64,000 bases of DNA, from assembly GCA_000004695.1 (NCBI GenBank), contig CM000154.2, forward strand, positions 2,912,001 through 2,976,000. The letters are read 5' to 3'. The notes under the pieces are model-generated. The model ran no database searches. It saw only the letters and a program-made list of their open reading frames with translations, and was not told the DNA's origin. This document shows, one piece after another, positions 19,040 through 60,644 of this stretch; within the stretch, counting starts at the first letter, position 1; each line of letters opens with the position of its first letter. The stretch is from Dictyostelium discoideum (taxonomy: Eukaryota). The position numbers and the translations under genes were made by a program.

Positions 19040-20103
19040 AAGAAGCAGCATCATCATTATCAATTTTAGCACCATTAAATTTAAATGAAATAGATGAAAA
19101 TAAAATAAAATTTAATAAAGATGGTGATAAAACATATTTTTCAGAGAAAGATAATACTCATTATATTTATAATACACATAGTAAACAATGGTTAGCAGAG
19201 ATAACTAAAGATATGATGAATTCACAACAATCGGTATACCAGAAAAAGGTAGAGAAAAGAGATTTAACACAAGAACAAATTGATAATATCTCTGATTTAC
19301 ATATTTCTGGTATACCTATGGATGGTTCAATAAGAGAGTTACAAATATCAAATTATCTAAAGAAATGTGGTTACATTAAAAAGAATGAATATGGTAGACC
19401 AATCATTAGTCTTTTAGTTGATAATGAAAATCAATTCACTGGTTGTGCTTTAGTTTCATTTGAACGTAAAGAATCTGTTCCAATTGCAATTTTACAATAT
19501 GATGAAACTGAAATCTCTCCAAATAATATAATTAGAATAAGAAAAGTAAGTAAAATTAAACTAACATTATTAAATAATATATATATTAATATATTAATAT
19601 ATATATATTTATATTTATATTTATAGGCAACACTTGAAGAATCAAAACTACATTTAGTAAATGAAAAAAGTAATAAAAAACAAAAGAAATCACATAAAGA
19701 TAGAAGGAGTGAATATGAGAATGAAGCAAAATATGGTTGGGCAGATTCAGAGAGTAAAACAGTGATTATAAAGAATTTATTCTCACCAGAGGAAGCAATG
19801 GTGGATCCAAACTTTTTTAATGATCTTCAAGCAGATTTAGAGGATGAAACCCATGGTTGTGGAAAATGTGGTCCAATCTCTTCGATTCACATCTTTGAGT
19901 ATAATCCAGATGGTGTTGTATCTGTAAAATTTTCTGAATTTGAATCTGCTAAGAAATGTGTAGCCTTAATGAATGATCGATTCTTTGGTGGAAGGAAATT
20001 ATCTGCTGATTTCTATGATGGTTATTCAAATTATTATGTTGAAGAAACTGATGAAAATAAAGAAAAACGTCTCAAGAAATGGGAATCTTATATAAATAAA
20101 TAA
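18859..20103 (+). CDS. HIV Tat-specific factor 1 / CUS2 homologue (splicing factor, RRM/UHM type). 2 exons: 18859..19545, 19627..20103.
   Basis: C-terminus ALMNDRFFGGRKLSADFYDGYSNYYVEETDENKEKRLKKWESYINK* matches HTATSF1 ALMNGRWFGGRQITAQAWDGTTDYQVEETSREREERLRGWEAFL. Exon 1 ends …IIRIRK|GTAAGT. Acceptor is ttatag|GCAACACTT. The frame joins track ORFs 18859..19626 and 19762..20103. An RRM-like stretch VIIKNLFSPEEAMVDP…GPISSIHIFEYNPDGVVSVKF is present. Confidence 0.75.
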
Positions 20104-20118
20104 TCTACCCAGCACACA

Positions 20119-20174
<56 letters not shown>

Positions 20175-20426
20175 ATTTTAAACTTTTGGGGGAGGGGTGA
20201 GTGAGTATATAACCACACTGGAATAATTATCTATTACCAAATTAAATTGTATATAAAAAAAAAAAATAAAAAAAATAAAAAAAAAAACGGTTGGGTGTTT
20301 TCATCTTGGGTTTAATTATATCGCCCCACTTAACTTTTTAAGTGGTTTTGTTTTTTTTTTTTTTTAAAAAACAATGTTTTTTTTTTTTTTTTTTTTTTTT
20401 TTCTTAATTTCTTTTAAAATATAAAA

Positions 20427-20698
20427 ATGGTTTCGCATGATATAATTGATATGATTACACTAACAGGAAAGGGACACTATAGACAAAGAATTGAAGTTTT
20501 TTTAATAGCCGACCCTACCTTCACAAAGGAAGAAAAACAAAAAATTATGAAAATAATTGATGCATTCAGTTCAGCCCTCCCAGATGAAAAAATTGAAAAA
20601 GCAATAATAAATGAATGTGAAAAATATTTAAATTCTACATTAGTATTTAAAAGAATTTTAGGTTCCATCCGACCATCATTTATAGGTAAACTTTAATT

Positions 20699-20741
<43 letters not shown>

Positions 20742-20889
20742 AATATTTATTTTTATTATTGTCATTAATATAACAAAAAAAGAAAAAGTCTGTGGAAAAT
20801 TAAAATATGGCTGTGTCATTATATCATTATTAATTTGGACAATAATTACTATTTTTCTCCATATTGATTTATTAAAGGCACTACTAAAA

Positions 20890-20892
<3 letters not shown>
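20427..20892 (+). CDS. Small hypothetical protein. Exon 1 (20427..20685, 86 aa + 1 nt) is confident as an ORF. A speculative second exon (20783..20892) would add a C-terminal TM helix (…KYGCVIISLLIWTIITIFLHIDLLKALLK*), giving a tail-anchored protein of about 123 aa.
   Basis: ATG at 20427 with coding-like, unusually G/C-containing codons. The track ORF ends IGKL*, but ATAG|GTAAAC is a plausible phase-1 donor. The acceptor aaaag|AAAAAGTCTGTGG continues in frame into a hydrophobic segment ending TAA at 20890-20892. Confidence 0.3.
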
Positions 20893-20980
<88 letters not shown>

Positions 20981-20982
20981 AT
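20888..20982. repeat. (AAAT)n microsatellite, about 24 units
   Basis: Direct reading of aaataaataaat… tract. Confidence 0.95.
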
Positions 20983-21096
20983 TTTATTTTTTTATTTTTT
21001 TATTTTACAAATCAATTTTATTTTTATTTTTAACTTTGATTAAACCATTTTATTATTATTATTACTATTATTTTTATTTTTATTTTTATTTTTTTT

Positions 21097-23349
21097 TTAA
21101 CTTTGATTAAACCATTTACCTTCACCTAATAAAATGACACGAGAAGTTGAATAAGACATACCTAAAAAGAAAGTATAAAGTAACATAAAATAAAAATATT
21201 TTGGAGGATTTTTCCAATGGAGTGCTTCAATTTTATAAATTCTAGTTTCAATGTACATGGAAATGATATCGGTTACCCATTCAAAAGAGAATTGAATTGC
21301 CATACTTGAAAATAAAGTTGTATAATCTAATTGACTCTTATCGAAAACATTATAAAATGCTATATAAACAAAACATGATGTTAAAATAGAGGTATTTTCA
21401 TACAATTGTTCGTGACGTAGAAAATCTCTATAAATTTTATCAAAATTTTGAGAATGTGTTAATCTCTTTTTAAAACAAAATCCACAAATTGCATTCATAA
21501 TCTTTTTATCTCTTGGTCTTAATGTAGTTCTCCATAATAATTCTGTTAAACTAACAATTGCCATTGTACCAGACATAAATAATAATGACACTAGTTTAAA
21601 ATAAAATAAAATAAATTAGTATAAAAAGAAATTTAAATATTATTTAAAAAAATAAAAAATAAAAAAAGAAAATACATTACTATTACTATTAAAAAATCTA
21701 CCATAATAAGTTGAAAACCACATAAAGATTAAAACTGGGAAAACATTTGTACCTGGAGTTTTTGGTTTAATACGAGAAGAACAAGCACGAGCAACAAATA
21801 AACCCATAGCACATAAACCAGGATGAATTAAAATACGTACAACCGATTTATTAATTGATGAGGTTTTAACATACCATGGAAGGATAGCAAAATCATAAAG
21901 TACAAGTACGATGGCAGCAAGAGCAAATTGACCCATAAAAAGATGTCTAAAAGTTGGATTATTGATTTTTCTACCCATATAATGTGAAGAGAGTACTAAG
22001 GCAACACAGAAAAAGAAATAACTTGGTAAAAGCGCTAATGTTTGATCAAGTAATTCATGTACAGTGTTATAGATTGCCCATGCCGATGCACCCGAAGATG
22101 AAATTAAACCAATTATCAATGGGACTATTGTATCACGGAATCCAAAGAAAGTTAATAATAAAAAGTATGGAAACATACATAATGAAAAATTTAAAATGGT
22201 ACGACTAATTGAGTGGGTAACGATTGCCCAATATGGCCAAGTAGTTGATGAACTATCAATATAACGACAACCAAGAAATATTTCAAAACAACCATAACCA
22301 ATAGCCATAATTGAAATTACAAGTGTTAGACCTAGAATTTTAAGGAAATAAGTACCAAATACTCTTATGAATTCTTTATGACTAAATGGTGGTACTGGTT
22401 CTTTTTTCTCTTCAAGTGCTTCAATTGGTTGTTCAATATCTTCTTTATTTTGTTGATCATCATCTCTGTCTGCATCGTCATATTCATCATATTGATCTTC
22501 ATCACCATATTCATCTTGGTCATCACCGTCACCACCATAACCCTTCATTTCAATACCATCTTTTGAAGAATTCATTGGATCATTTGGTGTAAATAATGGT
22601 GGTGTAATTAAAACAGTTCCTGCTGCATATGATGTATTTAATAAATTACTTGGTGTATTAAAGTTTGGAATTGGTGATGGTCCAATTTTCTCTTTTTCTA
22701 AATTAATTTCTTCTTGTATTGGTGTTTGTAATTCAACAATTGTTGGAACTTGTAATGTTATTGATTTTGGTTGTTCATTTTCATTATTATTATTATTATC
22801 AATTGGAATTGTTGGTACCTCTAAAGTTTCAGTTTTTGTAGTAGCGCTTGTTGTAGTTGGTGTAGTGGTTGTGGTGGTAGTATTATTAATTGGTTGTAAA
22901 GTTGTTGATACCGGTCTTCTTGGTAAATTTGTTGAATTTCTTCTTGATGGATCTCTATTGATATTATTTGGACGTAATTGAGAACCTGATCTTTGTTGCC
23001 TAGTTTGTGCAGATAAAAGATTTGGATCAACACCTACACCAGGTGGTAATCCATTTGGATCTAATGCTGTTGTATGTGATCTTTGTTGTCTTGTTTGAAT
23101 TGGTGATCTATTAGGTCTAACAACTCTATTAGGATTATTATTATGATTATTATTATTAGTTGGTAAATTTGGAGGTCTTGAAACTTCTGTATGTGATCTT
23201 GAACGTGGTTGAGATTGTGGTTCTGATTCAGAAACTTGAATTGAAAGTGCGCTTGTATTCTCTCCCTCTTGTGAATCTTGTCCTTCTTGTGAATCTGATC
23301 TAAATCTTGAAGCCAATAAATCCAATAATGAAAATAATGTTGTTGCCAT
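21097..23349 (-). CDS. Multi-pass transmembrane protein of unknown family, about 735 aa. It has an N-terminal Ser/Thr/Asn/Pro/Gln-rich disordered region of about 330 aa, then 8 or more hydrophobic helices. 2 exons: 23349..(21681-21702), 21600..21097.
   Basis: Track ORFs 21640..23349(-) and 21097..21591(-) are joined by an AT-rich intron of about 100 nt ending ttttaaactag|TGTCATTA. Three alternative phase-1 donors exist (G|GTAGAT, A|GTAATA, A|GTAATG), so the junction is plus or minus 21 nt. ATG is the complement of 23347-23349 (MATTLFSLLDLLASRFRS…). Hydrophobic segments include LKILGLTLVISIMAIGYGCFEIFLG, ILNFSLCMFPYFLLLTFFGF, FALAAIVLVLYDFAILPW. Confidence 0.6.
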
Positions 23350-44679: not shown

Positions 44680-44750
44680 GGGAGATTAGTTAAGTGGTAT
44701 AATGCTACCTTTGGGTGGTAGCGTCCTGAGTTCGATTCTCGGATCTCCCC
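44680..44750 (+). tRNA. tRNA-Pro (anticodon UGG), 71 nt without CCA
   Basis: Cloverleaf read by hand:
- Acceptor GGGAGAT/ATCTCCC (7 bp), discriminator C.
- D-arm GTTA-AGTGGTA-TAAT.
- Anticodon stem CTACC/GGTAG with loop TTTGGGT, giving anticodon TGG.
- T-stem CTGAG/CTCGG with loop TTCGATT (B box).
An identical copy lies on the minus strand at 58447..58517. Confidence 0.85.
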
Positions 44751-52469: not shown

Positions 52470-52502
52470 ATGTTTAAATTATTTAAAAAAAAAGAAGTAC
52501 CA

Positions 52503-52561
<59 letters not shown>

Positions 52562-54659
52562 AAATAATAATAATGAAAATAAAATTTTAACACCAAGAAT
52601 TAATGGTGCAGATCAATCATCAACAACAACAACAATTACAAATATTCAGACTAGTGGTGAAAAGAAATTAAAAACTAAATTATCAAAGAGTGAATTAACA
52701 AAGAGTGATAGTACAACAAGTAGTTTAGCAAATAGTCCAAGAAGTGAAAAAGCGGAAATGGGTATTAGAGATATTCCATATGATCTTTTGGGTAAATTAT
52801 TGGCGTTAATTCATGGTAATCGTATATTGACCAAAGAATTTATGTCAACAAGTTTAGTATGTAGAAAATGGAGAGCATTGGCACGTCTTAATGGTAATCA
52901 TTTCAATTTGGAATCATTTTTTAAAAAGGTAGAAGCAAGTAAAATGAGAGTTGAAACCATTGAAAGCTGTATCAATTATTTCACCTACATTTACCAAGCA
53001 TTGGAAATCATTGATATTGGTAAACTTTGTATAAATAATAGAATCTATTCAAAATATTCAATCTTTTTAATTGAATCATTGGATAAAATCACCAAACTCT
53101 CATTGGATATGTCAAAAGTTACATTGTCAGAGTTTGAAGTATTAGCATCAAGTTTAAAATCATTGAAAGCAACCAAAGATGTAACCATTCATTGTATGAC
53201 ACATCATTATTGTAATGCAATGATATCCGTATTCGAATCGTTACCAGAGTTGGAGAGTTTAAAGTTTACAGAGATGACATTTGAAAATTCAAATGAAGAT
53301 CATGATCTATTCGTACAATATTTGAAAAAGAATAATACAATACAGAAGTTATCAATAACTTTATTACCTGACAATACAAGATTCTTAAATTCAATTAAAA
53401 CGATTATGGGTTCAAATAGATCAATCAACTCTTTACAACTTACTCAAAGTATTAAAAGACCATCATTAACTTCATCACCTTCTTCAAATAATGTACATAT
53501 TCCACCAAGCTCTTCAAATTCATCCTCTGCTGCTGCAATTTCAACATCACCATCATCATTTTCAAATACACAATTCAATAGTGTTTTACAAACTTCTTAT
53601 TCAATTTCAAAGTTTAATTATTCTCATGATAGTTTAAAGGAATTAAATCTATCAAATATGTCAATGAATGATACAGATATGATGGAATTGGCAGAGAATG
53701 TTTTACAAAATAATCAATCATTGAAATCATTAGATATTAGTTATAATAAAAAAGTATCCTCTGCTACAATGGAACAATTCCTAAGAATTATGTGTGCAAA
53801 TACTGATATGAAATTAGAATTTTTAAATATTAGTGGTTTATCAATTAATGATCAATGTATAAGTTTGGTTGGTGATTATCTTCAAACCAATCCTTACCTA
53901 AAGGAAATCTATATTAATGATAGTGTTGAACAATATTGGTCAGATGGATTTAGAAACTTTTCAAATAAACTTTCAAATCGTCCAGCTTTAAAAACTTTAT
54001 ACCTAAATAGAAATCGTATTGAAACTAAATGTTTCGATGATTTAGCTCATGCAATTTCAAATAATAGTTCAAATGTTAGATATTTGGGATTAAGTGGTAC
54101 TTTAAATAATGCTCAAAGTTTACATTTAATTTGTAATTCTTTAGGTTCAAATTCAAATTTAGTTTCATTGGATATTTCAAATTGTGAAGTTTGTTTCTGT
54201 CCTTCTCTAACAGATTCATTATTAAAGAATCGTTATTTAGCAAAATTAAATGTAAACAATTGTAAATTAAATCAAAAAACTCTATTGGGTATGGCAAATA
54301 GTAATCTATCCATTCTTGATATTGGTTCAAATAATTTCACTTCAGGTGATACACTTCAAGAGTTTTTCGAATCTTTAAAATCAAATCAATCACTTTACGT
54401 TTTAAATCTTTCAAATACAGGTTTAAAAACTAAAGAATGTCAAGTCCTTTCAAGTCTTTTAGATTTAAATTCAAAAATACACTCGGTTGATATCTCTCAT
54501 AATAAAATTAAATCCTCTGATATTCAATGTATCGTCAAATGTATTCAATGTAAAAATTTACCTCCTTCAACAAAATTCACTTTGAAATTAAATGATACTA
54601 AAATAGATTTATTAAAAATTTCTAATGATTTATTAAATAGTCAAATTTCTGTTGATTAA
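52470..54659 (+). CDS. F-box-like / leucine-rich repeat (RNI-like LRR) protein, 729 aa, single exon
   Basis: After a poly-Asn N-terminus: IRDIPYDLLGKLLALIHGNRILTKEFMSTSLVCRKWRAL (F-box-like). Then repeated LxxLxLSxNxI-type units (LKSLDISYNKKVSS…, LKTLYLNRNRIETKCFDDLAHAISNN…, LVSLDISNCEV…, LSILDIGSNNFTSGD…, LYVLNLSNTGLKTKECQVL…, IHSVDISHNKIKSSDIQCIV). Confidence 0.7.
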
Positions 54660-54796
54660 AAAAATAATATTAATAAAATTTTATATATATATATATATAA
54701 CTTAAAATAATGTATAAAAAACATTTGATTTTATTATTTGATTTTTCTTTTTTTTTTAATTAGTATTGACATAGAAATAAAGTTTCATCAATATAT

Positions 54797-54970
54797 GTCC
54801 CATGCCAAAATAAATATGGCTGCTGAAATTAATATGGCATGGGACTTATGTCTGCTAGAATTACCATATTAATTTCAGCAGCCATATTAATTTTGGCATG
54901 CACAGACCAACTATTTTAGGCTGAAATTAATATGGCTGCTGAAATTAATATGGTAATTTTGGCATGGGAC
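54797..54970. repeat. Compact foldback element: nested inverted and direct repeats (MITE-like or hairpin-RNA-like), about 175 bp
   Basis: tgtcccatgcc…ggcatgggac hairpin (54797-54848) encloses aaatatggctgctgaaattaatatgg. Its exact reverse complement ccatattaatttcagcagccatatt lies at 54864-54888. Direct copies gctgaaattaatatggctgctgaaattaatatgg lie at 54921-54953. attttggcatgggac recurs at 54956-54970. Confidence 0.8.
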
Positions 54971-55353
54971 AAATACGTTTTAAAAAAAAGAAATTACAAT
55001 AGTAAAATTTCTCACAATATGGCAAACCGATTCATTTTTTATAATTAAATGACAAATTAATTATTCAAATTTAATGAATGATATTAGATTTTAACAATTT
55101 TAATTAATATTAAATAATATTTTTATTTTGGCCAATGATTGTTAAGGGTATCAGGAAAGAAAATAAAGTTTGCTGGATATTTTTTTTTTTTTTTTTTTAA
55201 TTTTGGTAATTATAAATTAAATTTTTTTTTTTTTTTAAATAAAAAAAAAAGAAAAAGATTAATTATTTCATTATTAAAAAAAATTAAAATTTTTATTAAT
55301 TATAAAAAAAAAGAAATTAAAAATCATTTTATTCATTATTAAAAAAATTAAAA

Positions 55354-55919
55354 ATGAACCCAAATAAATTATTATTATTATTAATAATTGTCTTGTTGTC
55401 TATTAGCTATTCATTAGCAACGATGATTAAGTGTACTTGTGAAAAAGCTGGGGATATTCCAAATTATGCTGGCCACAATGTTACTAAGATATCGGGTAAT
55501 TTGTTAAATAATAAAAACCAAAATAATATATATAATTAATAAAAATAATTTATTTATTTATTTATTTATTTTTTTTTTTTTTTTCCATTCATATTTATTA
55601 AAAAGATTTTAAAAAAGCATTAGATGCACTAGAATATGATAATGTTTTTAATAAGGAAGGTACAATAAAAGAAATAGGAAATGTTAGAATTGAAAGAACT
55701 GGTTTTGCCATAGTAAATCGTAGAAAATGGAAAACCGTAGAAGGCCACGTGATCGGCGTCAAAGGAAATTCAACAATTTCACAAGTTGTATTTCCTAATG
55801 ATTTAAAAGATTCATTTGGTGATATTTCTAGTCAATTGAATCTTGTCAATTGTATTGATAATGCTTTGTATGATTCATATATATCTGGAAAAGTCCACAA
55901 GGTTGTCCGTAAATTTTAG
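55354..55919 (+). CDS. Small secreted protein (about 151 aa). 2 exons: 55354..55495 (signal peptide MNPNKLLLLLIIVLLSISYSLA…CTCEKAGDIPNYAGHNVTKIS) and 55606..55919.
   Basis: Donor TCGG|GTAATT (phase 1). Acceptor ttattaaaaag|AT at 55604-55605. Exon 2 reads DFKKALDALEYDNVFNKEGTIKEIGNVRIERTGFAIVNRRKWKTVEGHVIGVKGNSTISQVVFPNDLKDSFGDISSQLNLVNCIDNALYDSYISGKVHKVVRKF*. Its codon usage has G/C third positions unusual for local intergenic DNA. Track ORF 55843..56031 is an overlapping wrong-frame artefact. Confidence 0.45.
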
Positions 55920-55974: not shown

Positions 55975-56460
55975 TTAATATTTCCTCACAAATTCCTCTT
56001 TTTCCTCTATTTCTCCTTTGAAATCCAATAATTTTTGAAGGAAAAGTAGGAAATGGAGGGAAAAAATTAAATTCCTTTTTTTCCTTTATTTCCTCAAAAA
56101 AAAAATAAAATTCCTCTTTTTTCCTTTGTTTCCTCAAAAAAAAAATAAAATTCCTCTTTTTCCCTTTATTTCCTCAAAAAAAAAATAAAATTCCTTTTTT
56201 TCCTTTATTTCCTCCTTCTTTTCCTTTTTTCCTTATTTCCTTAAAAAAAAAAAAAAAAAATTTCCTTTTTTTCCTTTATTTCCTCCTTCTTTTCCTTTAT
56301 TTCCTCCTTCTTTTCCTTTTTCCTTTATTTCCTTAAAAAAAAGAAAAAAAAAAATTTCCTTTTTTAAGGAATTTTATTTTTTTTTTCTTTTTTTTTTTTT
56401 CTTTTTTTTTTTTCTTTTTTCTTTTTTCTTTTTTCTTTTTTCTTTTTTCTTTTTTTTGTG
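55975..56460. repeat. GGAA/TTCC-rich minisatellite. About 42-bp units (aattcctctttttcctttatttcctcaaaaaaaaaataaa) x4-5, then (cttttt)n.
   Basis: Direct tandem copies visible at 56078-56250, with degenerate copies flanking. Followed by (CAAAT)9 at 56591-56635. Confidence 0.85.
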
Positions 56461-58130: not shown

Positions 58131-58405
58131 ATGGGATTTTATAATATAGGGTAGTTATTAATATTATTATTATTATCATTTTAAGATATCTACTTTTTAA
58201 ATATGTTAGTATTTAAAGTTAAATGTTAAATAATTAAATAAAATAATAAAATTGTAATTGTTTAGATGAATTGATCAAAGGATATAAGATTTGGAAGCAT
58301 TGATTCTGGAAAACAATATACTTTGCTAGTTAATTTTCTTTAATTATTACAATTAAAGAAACTCAGCCAATATAGACAAAATCTCTCTATTAAATAATCT
58401 ATATA

Positions 58406-58414
58406 GGAATCGAA
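58406..58414 (-). promoter_or_regulatory. Putative ex-B box downstream of the second tRNA-Pro copy
   Basis: Same conserved GTTCGATTC element as at copy 1. Confidence 0.45.
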
Positions 58415-58446
58415 CATGTGATCTATTGATTCGGATCTTAAAAGAT

Positions 58447-58517
58447 GGGGAGATCCGAGAATCGAACTCAGGACGCTACCACCCAAAGGTAGCATTATAC
58501 CACTTAACTAATCTCCC
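58447..58517 (-). tRNA. tRNA-Pro (UGG), second identical copy, minus strand
   Basis: The reverse complement of 58447-58517 is identical to the 44680-44750 tRNA. The 3' flank, including the ex-B box gttcgattcc (complement of 58406-58415), is conserved. Confidence 0.85.
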
Positions 58518-59312
58518 ATTTTGAAATTAGTGATTTTTAACGCATAAAAATATTTGAAATATTTTTTTAATTCGAAATTTTAATGTAAATTTGATTCTCA
58601 TTATTTAATTTAAGTTGAAAACATTGAGTAATAATTAAAAAAATATTAAATAAATATTAAACAAAGGTGGTTTCTACAAAAAAAAATTTCCAACACACCA
58701 ACAATTTTTTTTCACCATTCCAATTATTTCCATGTTTTGAGCCAATGATGGCACTTCCAAGTATAAACAATTAAATTTTTTAATTGCTGAACTAAATCAC
58801 CAGTACATGCACTCCAATCGCCATATTACCAATTATATTAAATCACATGATTAACCCTATAAGGATTTTGAATATTTGGAACAACATTGTAGATTTCACA
58901 AAAATATTAATGTTATTGTGTTTGTAAGCCATTTATAATTAAGGGCAACTATCCAAAAACTATTATTGATAAAATTGAAATTTTCAACATTATTTTGATT
59001 GTTATGATTCTTTTTTTCTTTTTTTTTTTTTTTTATAATAACACAATGAAATTTTTAAAAATAATACCAAATCATTAGAATTTCTTTAGATTATATAATT
59101 GGTTTATTAATTTGGTGAAGGTTATTTTTTTTTCAAATTATTAACTTCTTTTCAAAAAAACCGATAAAAACTTATTTGTTTTTAAAAAAAAAAAAAAAAA
59201 TTCCCATTAATTTAAGTTTCTGTACACTGTTTAAAATAATAAAAAAATATCTTTTAATTCCCACCTCGAGGTTTAGCCCGAAATTTTTTAGTAAAGTCTC
59301 GAATTTTTCAGC

Positions 59313-59354
<42 letters not shown>

Positions 59355-59495
59355 AAATCAAGAAAAATCTTGTTACATTTCATAATAATAATTATATTTT
59401 TTTTTTTTTTTCTCCAATACCAACAATTTTTTTGTTTTTATATTTTTATTTTTTTTTAATTTTTTATTTCCAACAATTGAAAAAAAAAAAAAAAA

Positions 59496-60644
59496 ATGAA
59501 TAAATTAATATTAAATGTTCTATTTATAGCAATAATTATTTGTGGTGTTGTAAATTCTTTAGGTTTTACAAGTACAACAACATTAATTGTTGATGTAACT
59601 CAAAATAACCAATATCCAAAATATGGAACATGTGGTACTGCCAGTAAAACATGTAATAATATTCAAGATGCAATTAATTATTATAATAGAATTTCCCAAA
59701 ATTCCAATATCCAACAATTAAATTTATTATTAGCCGATGGTGTATTTAATAATACAAATAATTTTATTGAATTTAAAAAATTCAATACAACTATTTCTCC
59801 ATTAAATGTTGGATCTGAAAATGTAATTTTCGATGGTTCAGTAGGTACTAAATCCAAGGAAACCCTATTCTCATTTGTCAGCTCAACAATTTGGATTACC
59901 GGTATTCAATTTGTTAATTTCCAAAGTGAAAGTTCTTTAATCTATAGTGAATCTGGCCAAATCAATATTGACCAATGCTCTTTCAAAAATGTTTCAAGTA
60001 AAGATGGCACTGTTTATTTAAAGAGTTCAAATAGTTTAATCTCAAATACAATTTTCACATCAAACTCTGTCAAGAAAACTTCCGATTCCGCCTCAGTTAT
60101 CAGCTTTTTCACAAGCTACACAAATAAATTCATAATCTCCAAATGCCAATTCAACAATAATGTCGCATTGAATGGCGGTGCCATTTACGCCAAAAACACT
60201 GCACTTATTACTGTTCCAGATCCACTTGTGTCCTTGATTGAGAATACCCTTTTCAATGGTAATGTTGCAAGTGGAAAAGGCGGTGCACTCTACACTGACA
60301 ATATTCTATTAATCGTCGATTCAAATGTTTTCACTAATAACACCTCACCAACTGGTAGTATTATTAATTTAAACAATGGTCTTATGAATATTACCTCTTC
60401 TTCATTCTACTCTGGAACTAGTTTAAACTATTTCTTATCAACTATTATCTATACAACTAAATCAGATTTAAATATTGATGATAGTACTTTTGATAGAAGT
60501 TTTTCAGTTGCAATTAATTGTGATTCTTCAACTGTTATAACTCAAAATAATAATCTTTCACTCAGATTAGTTTGTTATAATTGTATTTCAATTATTGAAG
60601 GTACTCAAGATTGTCAAGGAGTTCCAAAAAATTTAGATTACTAA
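59496..60644 (+). CDS. Secreted right-handed parallel beta-helix repeat protein (pectin-lyase-fold-like), 382 aa, signal peptide
   Basis: MNKLILNVLFIAIIICGVVNS signal peptide. Repeated ~22-residue Asn/Ser/Thr/Gly-rich turns (NNVALNGGAIYAKNTALITV, NGNVASGKGGALYTDNILLIVDSNVFTNN, …) typical of PbH1 beta-helix repeats. Many NxS/T sites. Cys-rich C-terminus. Confidence 0.6.
   Translation: MNKLILNVLFIAIIICGVVNSLGFTSTTTLIVDVTQNNQYPKYGTCGTASKTCNNIQDAINYYNRISQNSNIQQLNLLLADGVFNNTNNFIEFKKFNTTISPLNVGSENVIFDGSVGTKSKETLFSFVSSTIWITGIQFVNFQSESSLIYSESGQINIDQCSFKNVSSKDGTVYLKSSNSLISNTIFTSNSVKKTSDSASVISFFTSYTNKFIISKCQFNNNVALNGGAIYAKNTALITVPDPLVSLIENTLFNGNVASGKGGALYTDNILLIVDSNVFTNNTSPTGSIINLNNGLMNITSSSFYSGTSLNYFLSTIIYTTKSDLNIDDSTFDRSFSVAINCDSSTVITQNNNLSLRLVCYNCISIIEGTQDCQGVPKNLDY

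Follow-up and report, generated by a model that had tools for sequence, protein, structure and literature searches.

Some miRNA genes derive from MITEs, as human mir-548 does from Made1 and certain plant MIRs do from Stowaway and Tourist MITEs. A closer parallel to the locus described here is the Rfam family RF03716 (mir-7131), which we take to represent the ddi-mir-7131 precursors of Dictyostelium discoideum, attributed to Avesson et al. 2012. The name mir-7131 was not found in a literature search, and the supplement of PMC6161686 holds no thug or 7131 entries.

Thug-S is a family of D. discoideum DNA transposons (Glockner et al. 2001, cited through PMC4894637, PMC6161686, and PMC5633606). 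Thug elements make up about 0.1% of the genome, whose DNA transposons have otherwise hardly been studied. Small RNAs named miRNA_can_D3-5p (UAUGGCUGCUGAAAUUAAUGUGG) and miRNA_can_D3-3p (AUUAAUUUCGGCAGCCAUAUU) have been reported (Meier et al., Table 2, PMC4894637) and described as thug-S-derived and multicopy; thug-S-derived miRNAs had been published earlier (Avesson et al. 2012, as cited in PMC4894637). Reads of miRNA_can_D3 are reduced in rbdB- cells and increased in agnA- cells, and its Northern blots were made with a probe complementary to 5p (PMC4894637). At the level of the family, the 21-23-nt RNAs from the 25-mer core of the repeat are RbdB/DrnB-dependent and developmentally regulated (PMC4894637). 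The S4 Table of that work places miRNA_can_D3 at six loci, three on chromosome 2, one on chromosome 3, and two on chromosome 5 (0.425 and 4.796 Mb).

The foldback considered here (Table 1) spans 174 bp on AX4-type chromosome 5 of D. discoideum, within a 64-kb stretch of DNA (the window) whose G+C content is about 20%. Alignment of its three segments reveals a single unit of approximately 55 nt that is repeated three times in the order +, -, +, with the formula CATGCCAAAATTA, AATATGGCTGCTGAAATTAATATGG, TAATTYTGGCA(TGG)GAC, or in aligned form CATGCCAAAAT(T/A), AATATGGCTGCTGAAATTAATATGG, TAATT(C/T)TGGCA(TGG)GAC. The central 25-mer AATATGGCTGCTGAAATTAATATGG is exact at positions 54813-54837(+), 54864-54888(-), and 54929-54953(+), which bears out the initial report of a repeat present twice directly and once inverted. 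None of these copies is expected by chance (0 matches in 100 shuffles), and no further match with up to three mismatches was found in the 64-kb window. The three copies do share one sequence, as had been claimed, but the exact common core is 25 nt rather than 26, given that the "a" before aatatgg occurs in copy 1 only. The two direct copies extend to 30 nt at 97% identity according to the repeat finder. Compared with module 3, module 1 is missing 9 nt (TAATTTTGG). GAC-TTAT-GTC links modules 1 and 2 tail to tail, and a 23-nt spacer separates modules 2 and 3, which stand head to head.

The termini repeat this logic on a smaller scale. A stem sequence had been said to recur three times, and it does so as GTCCCATGCC once, at 54797(+), and as GGCATGGGAC twice, at 54836-54845 and 54961-54970. 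Both outer ends bear the longer 15-mer GTCCCATGCCAAAAT without mismatch, at 54797(+) and 54956-54970(-), and an inner copy with two mismatches lies at 54831-54845(-); 0.1 matches would be expected by chance. The inverted arms recovered by the repeat finder fall into three pairs, of 41 nt (95% complementary), of 37 nt (97%), and, outermost, of 20 nt (95%).

Table 1. Features of the foldback and of the adjoining strain-specific block, in window coordinates.
Feature	Position	Strand	Details
Whole foldback unit	54797..54970	.	Terminal inverted repeat GTCCCATGCCAAAAT / ATTTTGGCATGGGAC at the ends
Foldback unit with T(A/T)T extension	54794-54973		
Module 1 of the ~55-nt unit	54797..54845	+	Alignment of three segments
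Module 2, inverted	54850..54904	-	Alignment and repeat finder
Module 3	54915..54970	+	Alignment of three segments
Hairpin A (modules 1:2)	54797-54904		-56.8 kcal/mol, z = -10
Hairpin B (modules 2:3)	54848-54970		-65.9 kcal/mol, z = -11.9
Rfam RF03716 mir-7131 match (hairpin A)	54813..54890	+	82.6 bits
23-mer TATGGCTGCTGAAATTAATATGG	54815..54837	+	One mismatch to miRNA_can_D3-5p; second copy at 54931-54953
21-mer ATTAATTTCAGCAGCCATATT	54868..54888	+	One mismatch to miRNA_can_D3-3p
Candidate TA target-site duplication, left copy	54792..54793		catcaaTA / TATGTCCC; strains without the element read catcaaTAc
Candidate TA target-site duplication, right copy	54974..54975		GGGACAAA / TAcgtttt
AX4-type-specific block carrying DDB_G0289579	54972..57861	+	~92-93% copy of a dispersed repeat; left junction abuts the hairpin
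Left junction of the block			Ancestral chr5 catcAATACcaat; donor repeat tagtAATACgtttt; window catcaaTA[TATGTCCC...GGGACAAA]TAcgtttt
Right junction of the block			Ancestral chr5 tttatAAAtttatt; donor repeat ctctAAAAgtat; window ctctAAAtttatt

Because the modules run +, -, +, two mutually exclusive long hairpins are possible on either strand. In hairpin A the 25-nt core is fully paired within arms of 37 nt, whereas hairpin B (54853..54964, + strand) has 41-nt arms around a 30-nt loop. Pairing between the two outer termini is possible as well. The long imperfect hairpin proposed in the initial annotation, for which an RNA fold prediction was the suggested check, is predicted with z-scores of -10 to -12 against shuffled sequences. 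Specifically, the RNA of region 54785-54985 (201 nt) folds at -89.5 kcal/mol on the + strand (z = -11.4) and at -81.5 kcal/mol on the - strand (z = -10.0), compared to about -40 kcal/mol for shuffled controls, and the same region folded as DNA gives -53.6 kcal/mol (z = -10.6).

Hairpin A also matches the mir-7131 covariance model RF03716 over its full length (model positions 1-84), with a score of 82.6 bits (E = 2.3e-18) against a gathering score of 74 bits. The - strand of the foldback reaches 67.8 bits, which is under the gathering score. This is the sole non-tRNA Rfam family matched in the 64-kb window. The copy and the consensus come from the same organism and are identical in the 25-mer of the 5' arm, the TTAT loop, and the GAC/GTC junction. 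The copy differs in that its 5' arm is 6 bases shorter near the loop and its 3' arm carries a single substitution, reading CAGCAG where the consensus has CAGCAA. Matches to MIR5512, MIR7807, mir-1263, MIR8742, and mir-3913 on both strands of 54792-54973 (E of 1e-7 to 1e-11) fall far under their gathering scores, and these plant and animal families reflect the generic similarity of long perfect hairpins and not homology.

The published small RNAs point in the same direction. The 23-mer and 21-mer that correspond to miRNA_can_D3-5p and -3p lie in opposite arms of a stable stem, and each differs from the published sequence by an A in place of a G: the copy reads UAAUAUGG where UAAUGUGG was published, and UUUCAGCAG where UUUCGGCAG was published. 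Since one base per arm differs, reads of this copy are distinguishable from those of its sister copies, and by the same token the published reads are no proof that this copy is expressed. The copy (chromosome 5, ~3 Mb) is absent from the list of six published loci. At all six of those loci the 21-mer begins 63 nt before the 23-mer, which equals the offset from 54868 to 54931 in hairpin B. Given that this spacing corresponds to hairpin B and the Rfam model to hairpin A, the three-module layout is evidently a property of the family. Taken together, the 174-bp structure very probably represents a copy of the repeat hairpin assigned to thug-S in the literature and to mir-7131 in Rfam and miRBase.

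The relationship to thug-S deserves a more careful statement. The small RNAs attributed to thug-S have their sequences in this copy, at the internal spacing seen at the six thug-S loci, and its apparently low copy number is consistent with the thug share of the genome (~0.1%). It differs in that the 174-bp hairpin unit stands alone, with no thug-S gene model part adjacent. In dictyBase, thug-S is represented by gene models, which implies a full element longer than 174 bp. The rest of such an element was not found beside the hairpin, where the left flank is unique chromosome 5 DNA and the right flank an unrelated dispersed repeat. The right-flank repeat was considered as thug-S itself, an idea that is unsupported, as its other copies contain ordinary small genes only and lack the hairpin, the GTCCCATGCC terminus, and a transposase-like ORF. 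On small-RNA sequences and the Rfam match, the foldback is indirectly assignable to thug-S, and the evidence supports no label more precise than "solo thug-S hairpin unit". Both Rfam and the small-RNA literature on Dictyostelium already cover the foldback family, and the novelty of the foldback is therefore low. What is mildly new is the solo unit, its strain polymorphism, its exact coincidence with a 2.9-kb insertion, and its overlap with the start of a neighboring gene model.

A reading as a MITE or foldback transposon, or as a precursor for small RNAs, had been offered from the outset. It finds support at the level of the family in the Rfam match, the near-identity to small RNAs, and the absence of the element from three assemblies. 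The family is likewise neither single-copy nor devoid of small RNAs, as six other loci, small-RNA reads, and Northern blots have been reported. The element has several features of a MITE: it is 174 bp long without coding capacity, and its terminal inverted repeats are exact over 15 of 15 nt (20 nt at 95% including flanking bases). Its presence also varies among strains, a polymorphism confounded by the strain-specific block next to it. Across the foldback and 60 nt of flank on each side, the longest stop-free stretch is about 45 codons and begins in the upstream flank, and none reaches 60; open frames within the hairpin are at most 25 aa. A second copy was sought in the 64-kb window and in approximately 230 kb of further DNA from the D. 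discoideum group, and none turned up; six actin loci sampled for this purpose (~127 kb) were negative by both 16-mer search and Rfam. A metagenome scan with ATGGCTGCTGAAATTAATRTGG returned two matches, each single and with no inverted copy nearby, which were set aside as chance occurrences without a hairpin.

Overall, the foldback behaves like a MITE, with a copy number that appears low and a target duplication that rests on very little flanking sequence. It resembles the MITE-derived miRNA genes in being a short noncoding element with terminal inverted repeats and a palindromic transcript, with a role as Dicer substrate that is proposed here by analogy, and in having flanks compatible with a TA duplication. 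It differs from them in its three alternating modules, which form two competing hairpins rather than one terminal-repeat pair, and in its apparently very low copy number. FB-type transposons share the near end-to-end foldback, but they measure kilobases and carry long terminal inverted repeats of tandem subrepeats, whereas this element has three units in 174 bp. Tandem subrepeat arrays were not found in it, and it is not a classical foldback transposon.

If this copy acts as its relatives do, a transcript of either strand would fold as hairpin 1:2 or 2:3, and the nuclear Dicer-like protein DrnB, together with the dsRNA-binding protein RbdB, would cut it to 21-23-nt RNAs from the 25-mer core. 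Both transcription and dicing are projected onto this copy from its sister copies. Read-through or leader transcription of the hairpin is plausible, as it lies between two + strand genes at distances of 138 and 384 nt. The upstream neighbor is a 729-aa ORF at 52470-54659(+). The initial annotation had put the foldback just downstream of an F-box/LRR gene, and the position holds, at 138 nt past the stop codon. The name is plausible but weak, because all of the LRR and F-box Pfam matches fall under curated cut-offs. An exact look-up of this ORF gave no match, but three other window ORFs match D. discoideum exactly, as DDB_G0289575, the major actin, and part of DDB_G0289551. Together with the DDB_G0289579 model, these matches identify the window as AX4-type chromosome 5. 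The downstream neighbor, DDB_G0289579, lies at 55354-55919 on the + strand. Elsewhere in the window, two inverted tRNA-Pro(UGG) genes, at 44680-44750(+) and 58447-58517(-), lie 13.7 kb apart, and their flanks are so alike that one stretch of the D. cf. discoideum locus (L004, 8590-8700) matches both.

The distribution of the foldback among strains bears on how it arrived. An identical copy (100%) is present in the AX4-like assembly GCA_054883475.1 (L003 5350-5523; chromosome 5, ~3.05 Mb). Three further assemblies of the D. discoideum group, namely D. cf. discoideum (L004), L005, and L006, supplied orthologous loci for comparison, and no part of the foldback occurs at the orthologous site in any of them. 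Their homology with the upstream-gene side ends at "catcaata" (54793), 3 nt before the GTCCC terminus, and the left flank of the foldback is thus unique DNA that is conserved in strains without the element. TA (or ATA/AATA) flanks the foldback on both sides, and the reconstructed preinsertion sequence catcaaTAc equals that of the element-less strains, with one ancestral base only on the right. There is no clean empty site, given that the right flank is itself strain-specific. We infer that the copy arrived by transposition into a TA. As a separate observation, L005 and L006 show 81-86% intergenic identity to window positions 58339-59598 and 98% identity to the adjacent 53800-54746, a stretch made up mostly of coding sequence of the LRR gene, with ~90 nt of its 3' flank. 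This difference implies either that the strains are quite diverged or that spacers turn over fast.

The strain-specific right flank is a 2.9-kb block, from 54972 to ~57861, that is absent from L004-L006 and stands in place of approximately 200 bp there. The block is one copy of a dispersed repeat harboring a family of small secreted-protein genes, represented by DDB_G0289579 here, DDB_G0293998 on chromosome 6, and DDB_G0275949 on chromosome 2. Other copies of the repeat (L014 9552-11564, chromosome 6-like; L015 9551-12532, chromosome 2-type) extend further left, and neither contains the hairpin. The 3-5 nt of microhomology at both ends of the block indicate that it was joined through microhomology. 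The hairpin lies precisely within the left AATAC microhomology, with TA on each side, a position compatible with a TA target-site duplication. A second thug-type terminus was sought at the right end of the block and not found. Several features of the repeat and its surroundings can be recorded here. Positions 56061-56365 form a tandem array of a ~40-bp unit rich in TTCCTC (aaaattcctctttttcctttatttcctc...), which also occurs in the paralogous repeat copies, and the array is followed by T-rich (TTTTTC-type) sequence, (AAATC)n, and long poly(A) runs to ~56870. Around its repeat copy, L014 carries transposable-element genes with reverse transcriptase and integrase domains (1-1036, 14601-15433, and 18521-21883), and its annotation fuses the small repeat gene to an ML-domain (E1_DerP2_DerF2) gene.

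Such a precise juxtaposition raises the possibility that hairpin and rearrangement are linked, with the hairpin either carried in with the 2.9-kb block or already present as a palindrome that caused a break or fork stall and so primed the copying of the block. The right end of the hairpin and the left end of the block coincide within 0-5 nt, a spot that an insertion unrelated to the block would hit about once in 1000 cases within the 4.8-kb spacer, and both features are limited to the AX4-type lineage. Against co-transport, three copies of the donor repeat are known in the AX4-like assembly (chromosome 5, L014, and L015), and only the one on chromosome 5 has the hairpin. Furthermore, the argument draws on a single locus without an intermediate allele. 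We consider a linked arrival possible, if somewhat doubtful. It concerns the arrival of this copy and is compatible with its mir-7131/thug-S identity. From this one locus, the data suggest that palindrome and rearrangement are linked, whether the hairpin gave rise to a break or fork stall or was itself inserted at a fresh junction. A more elaborate scenario, in which the 174-bp unit is a mobile MITE in its own right instead of an integral thug-S component and its palindrome triggered, in the AX4/NC4 lineage, a microhomology-mediated template switch that copied 2.9 kb of the paralogous gene-bearing repeat beside it, seems improbable.

A cis-acting function would make the hairpin a 3'-end element or terminator of the LRR gene, or a promoter-proximal element of DDB_G0289579. 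The arrangement would suit such a role, since the hairpin follows the LRR stop codon and precedes the DDB_G0289579 start codon with everything on the + strand, but it is absent from the LRR orthologs in three assemblies and from the DDB_G0289579-type paralogs. Neither neighboring gene therefore needs the hairpin, and this reading is very unlikely. Less credible still is that the foldback is a local scar, an inverted triplication produced by microhomology-mediated repair when the block was inserted, rather than a mobile or repeated element. Its placement exactly in the AATAC microhomology shared by ancestral chromosome 5 and the donor repeat, the 3-5 nt of microhomology at both block junctions, and the hairpin-less paralogous copies (L014 and L015) would all fit a scar. 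However, the sequence scores above threshold with a covariance model built from other loci, and the small RNAs that map, identically spaced, to six further loci match it too. A scar formed de novo would not recreate a pre-existing family. Least tenable of all is that module 3 is protein-coding as the first exon of DDB_G0289579 in the AX4 reference, where EAL62656.1 indeed begins with a translation of this region, because the paralogs begin with MNPNKLLLL, which the window encodes further downstream, the exon is missing from a separate annotation of the AX4-like assembly, and hairpin-less paralogous loci contain the same gene.

The foldback also bears on gene annotation. The AX4 model of DDB_G0289579 (EAL62656.1, 164 aa) begins with MAAEINMVILAWDKYVLKKRNYN, the translation of 54932-55000, which corresponds to module 3 plus 30 nt of flank. 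Its start codon is an ATG inside the miRNA-like 25-mer. The paralog DDB_G0293998 and the D. cf. discoideum homolog begin with the signal peptide MNPNKLLLL. Positions 55354-55422 of the window encode the same peptide, in frame with and contiguous to MIKCTCEK. The hairpin exon is absent from the independent annotation of the AX4-like assembly (P0025). Since the paralogs start with a signal peptide and the independent annotation omits the exon, the 5' end of the reference model is probably wrong. Gene prediction probably produced both its first exon and its deviating C-terminus as artefacts, and the DDB_G0289579 reference model probably needs correction.

For the biology of these elements, the copy represents a natural presence/absence allele that is coupled to a microhomology-mediated insertion of 2.9 kb. 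If the improbable template-switch scenario were true, the switch would have created a strain-specific copy of DDB_G0289579 directly downstream of a miRNA-type hairpin. The presence/absence allele may be used to ask whether palindromes of the thug-S type are fragile or still mobile in D. discoideum.
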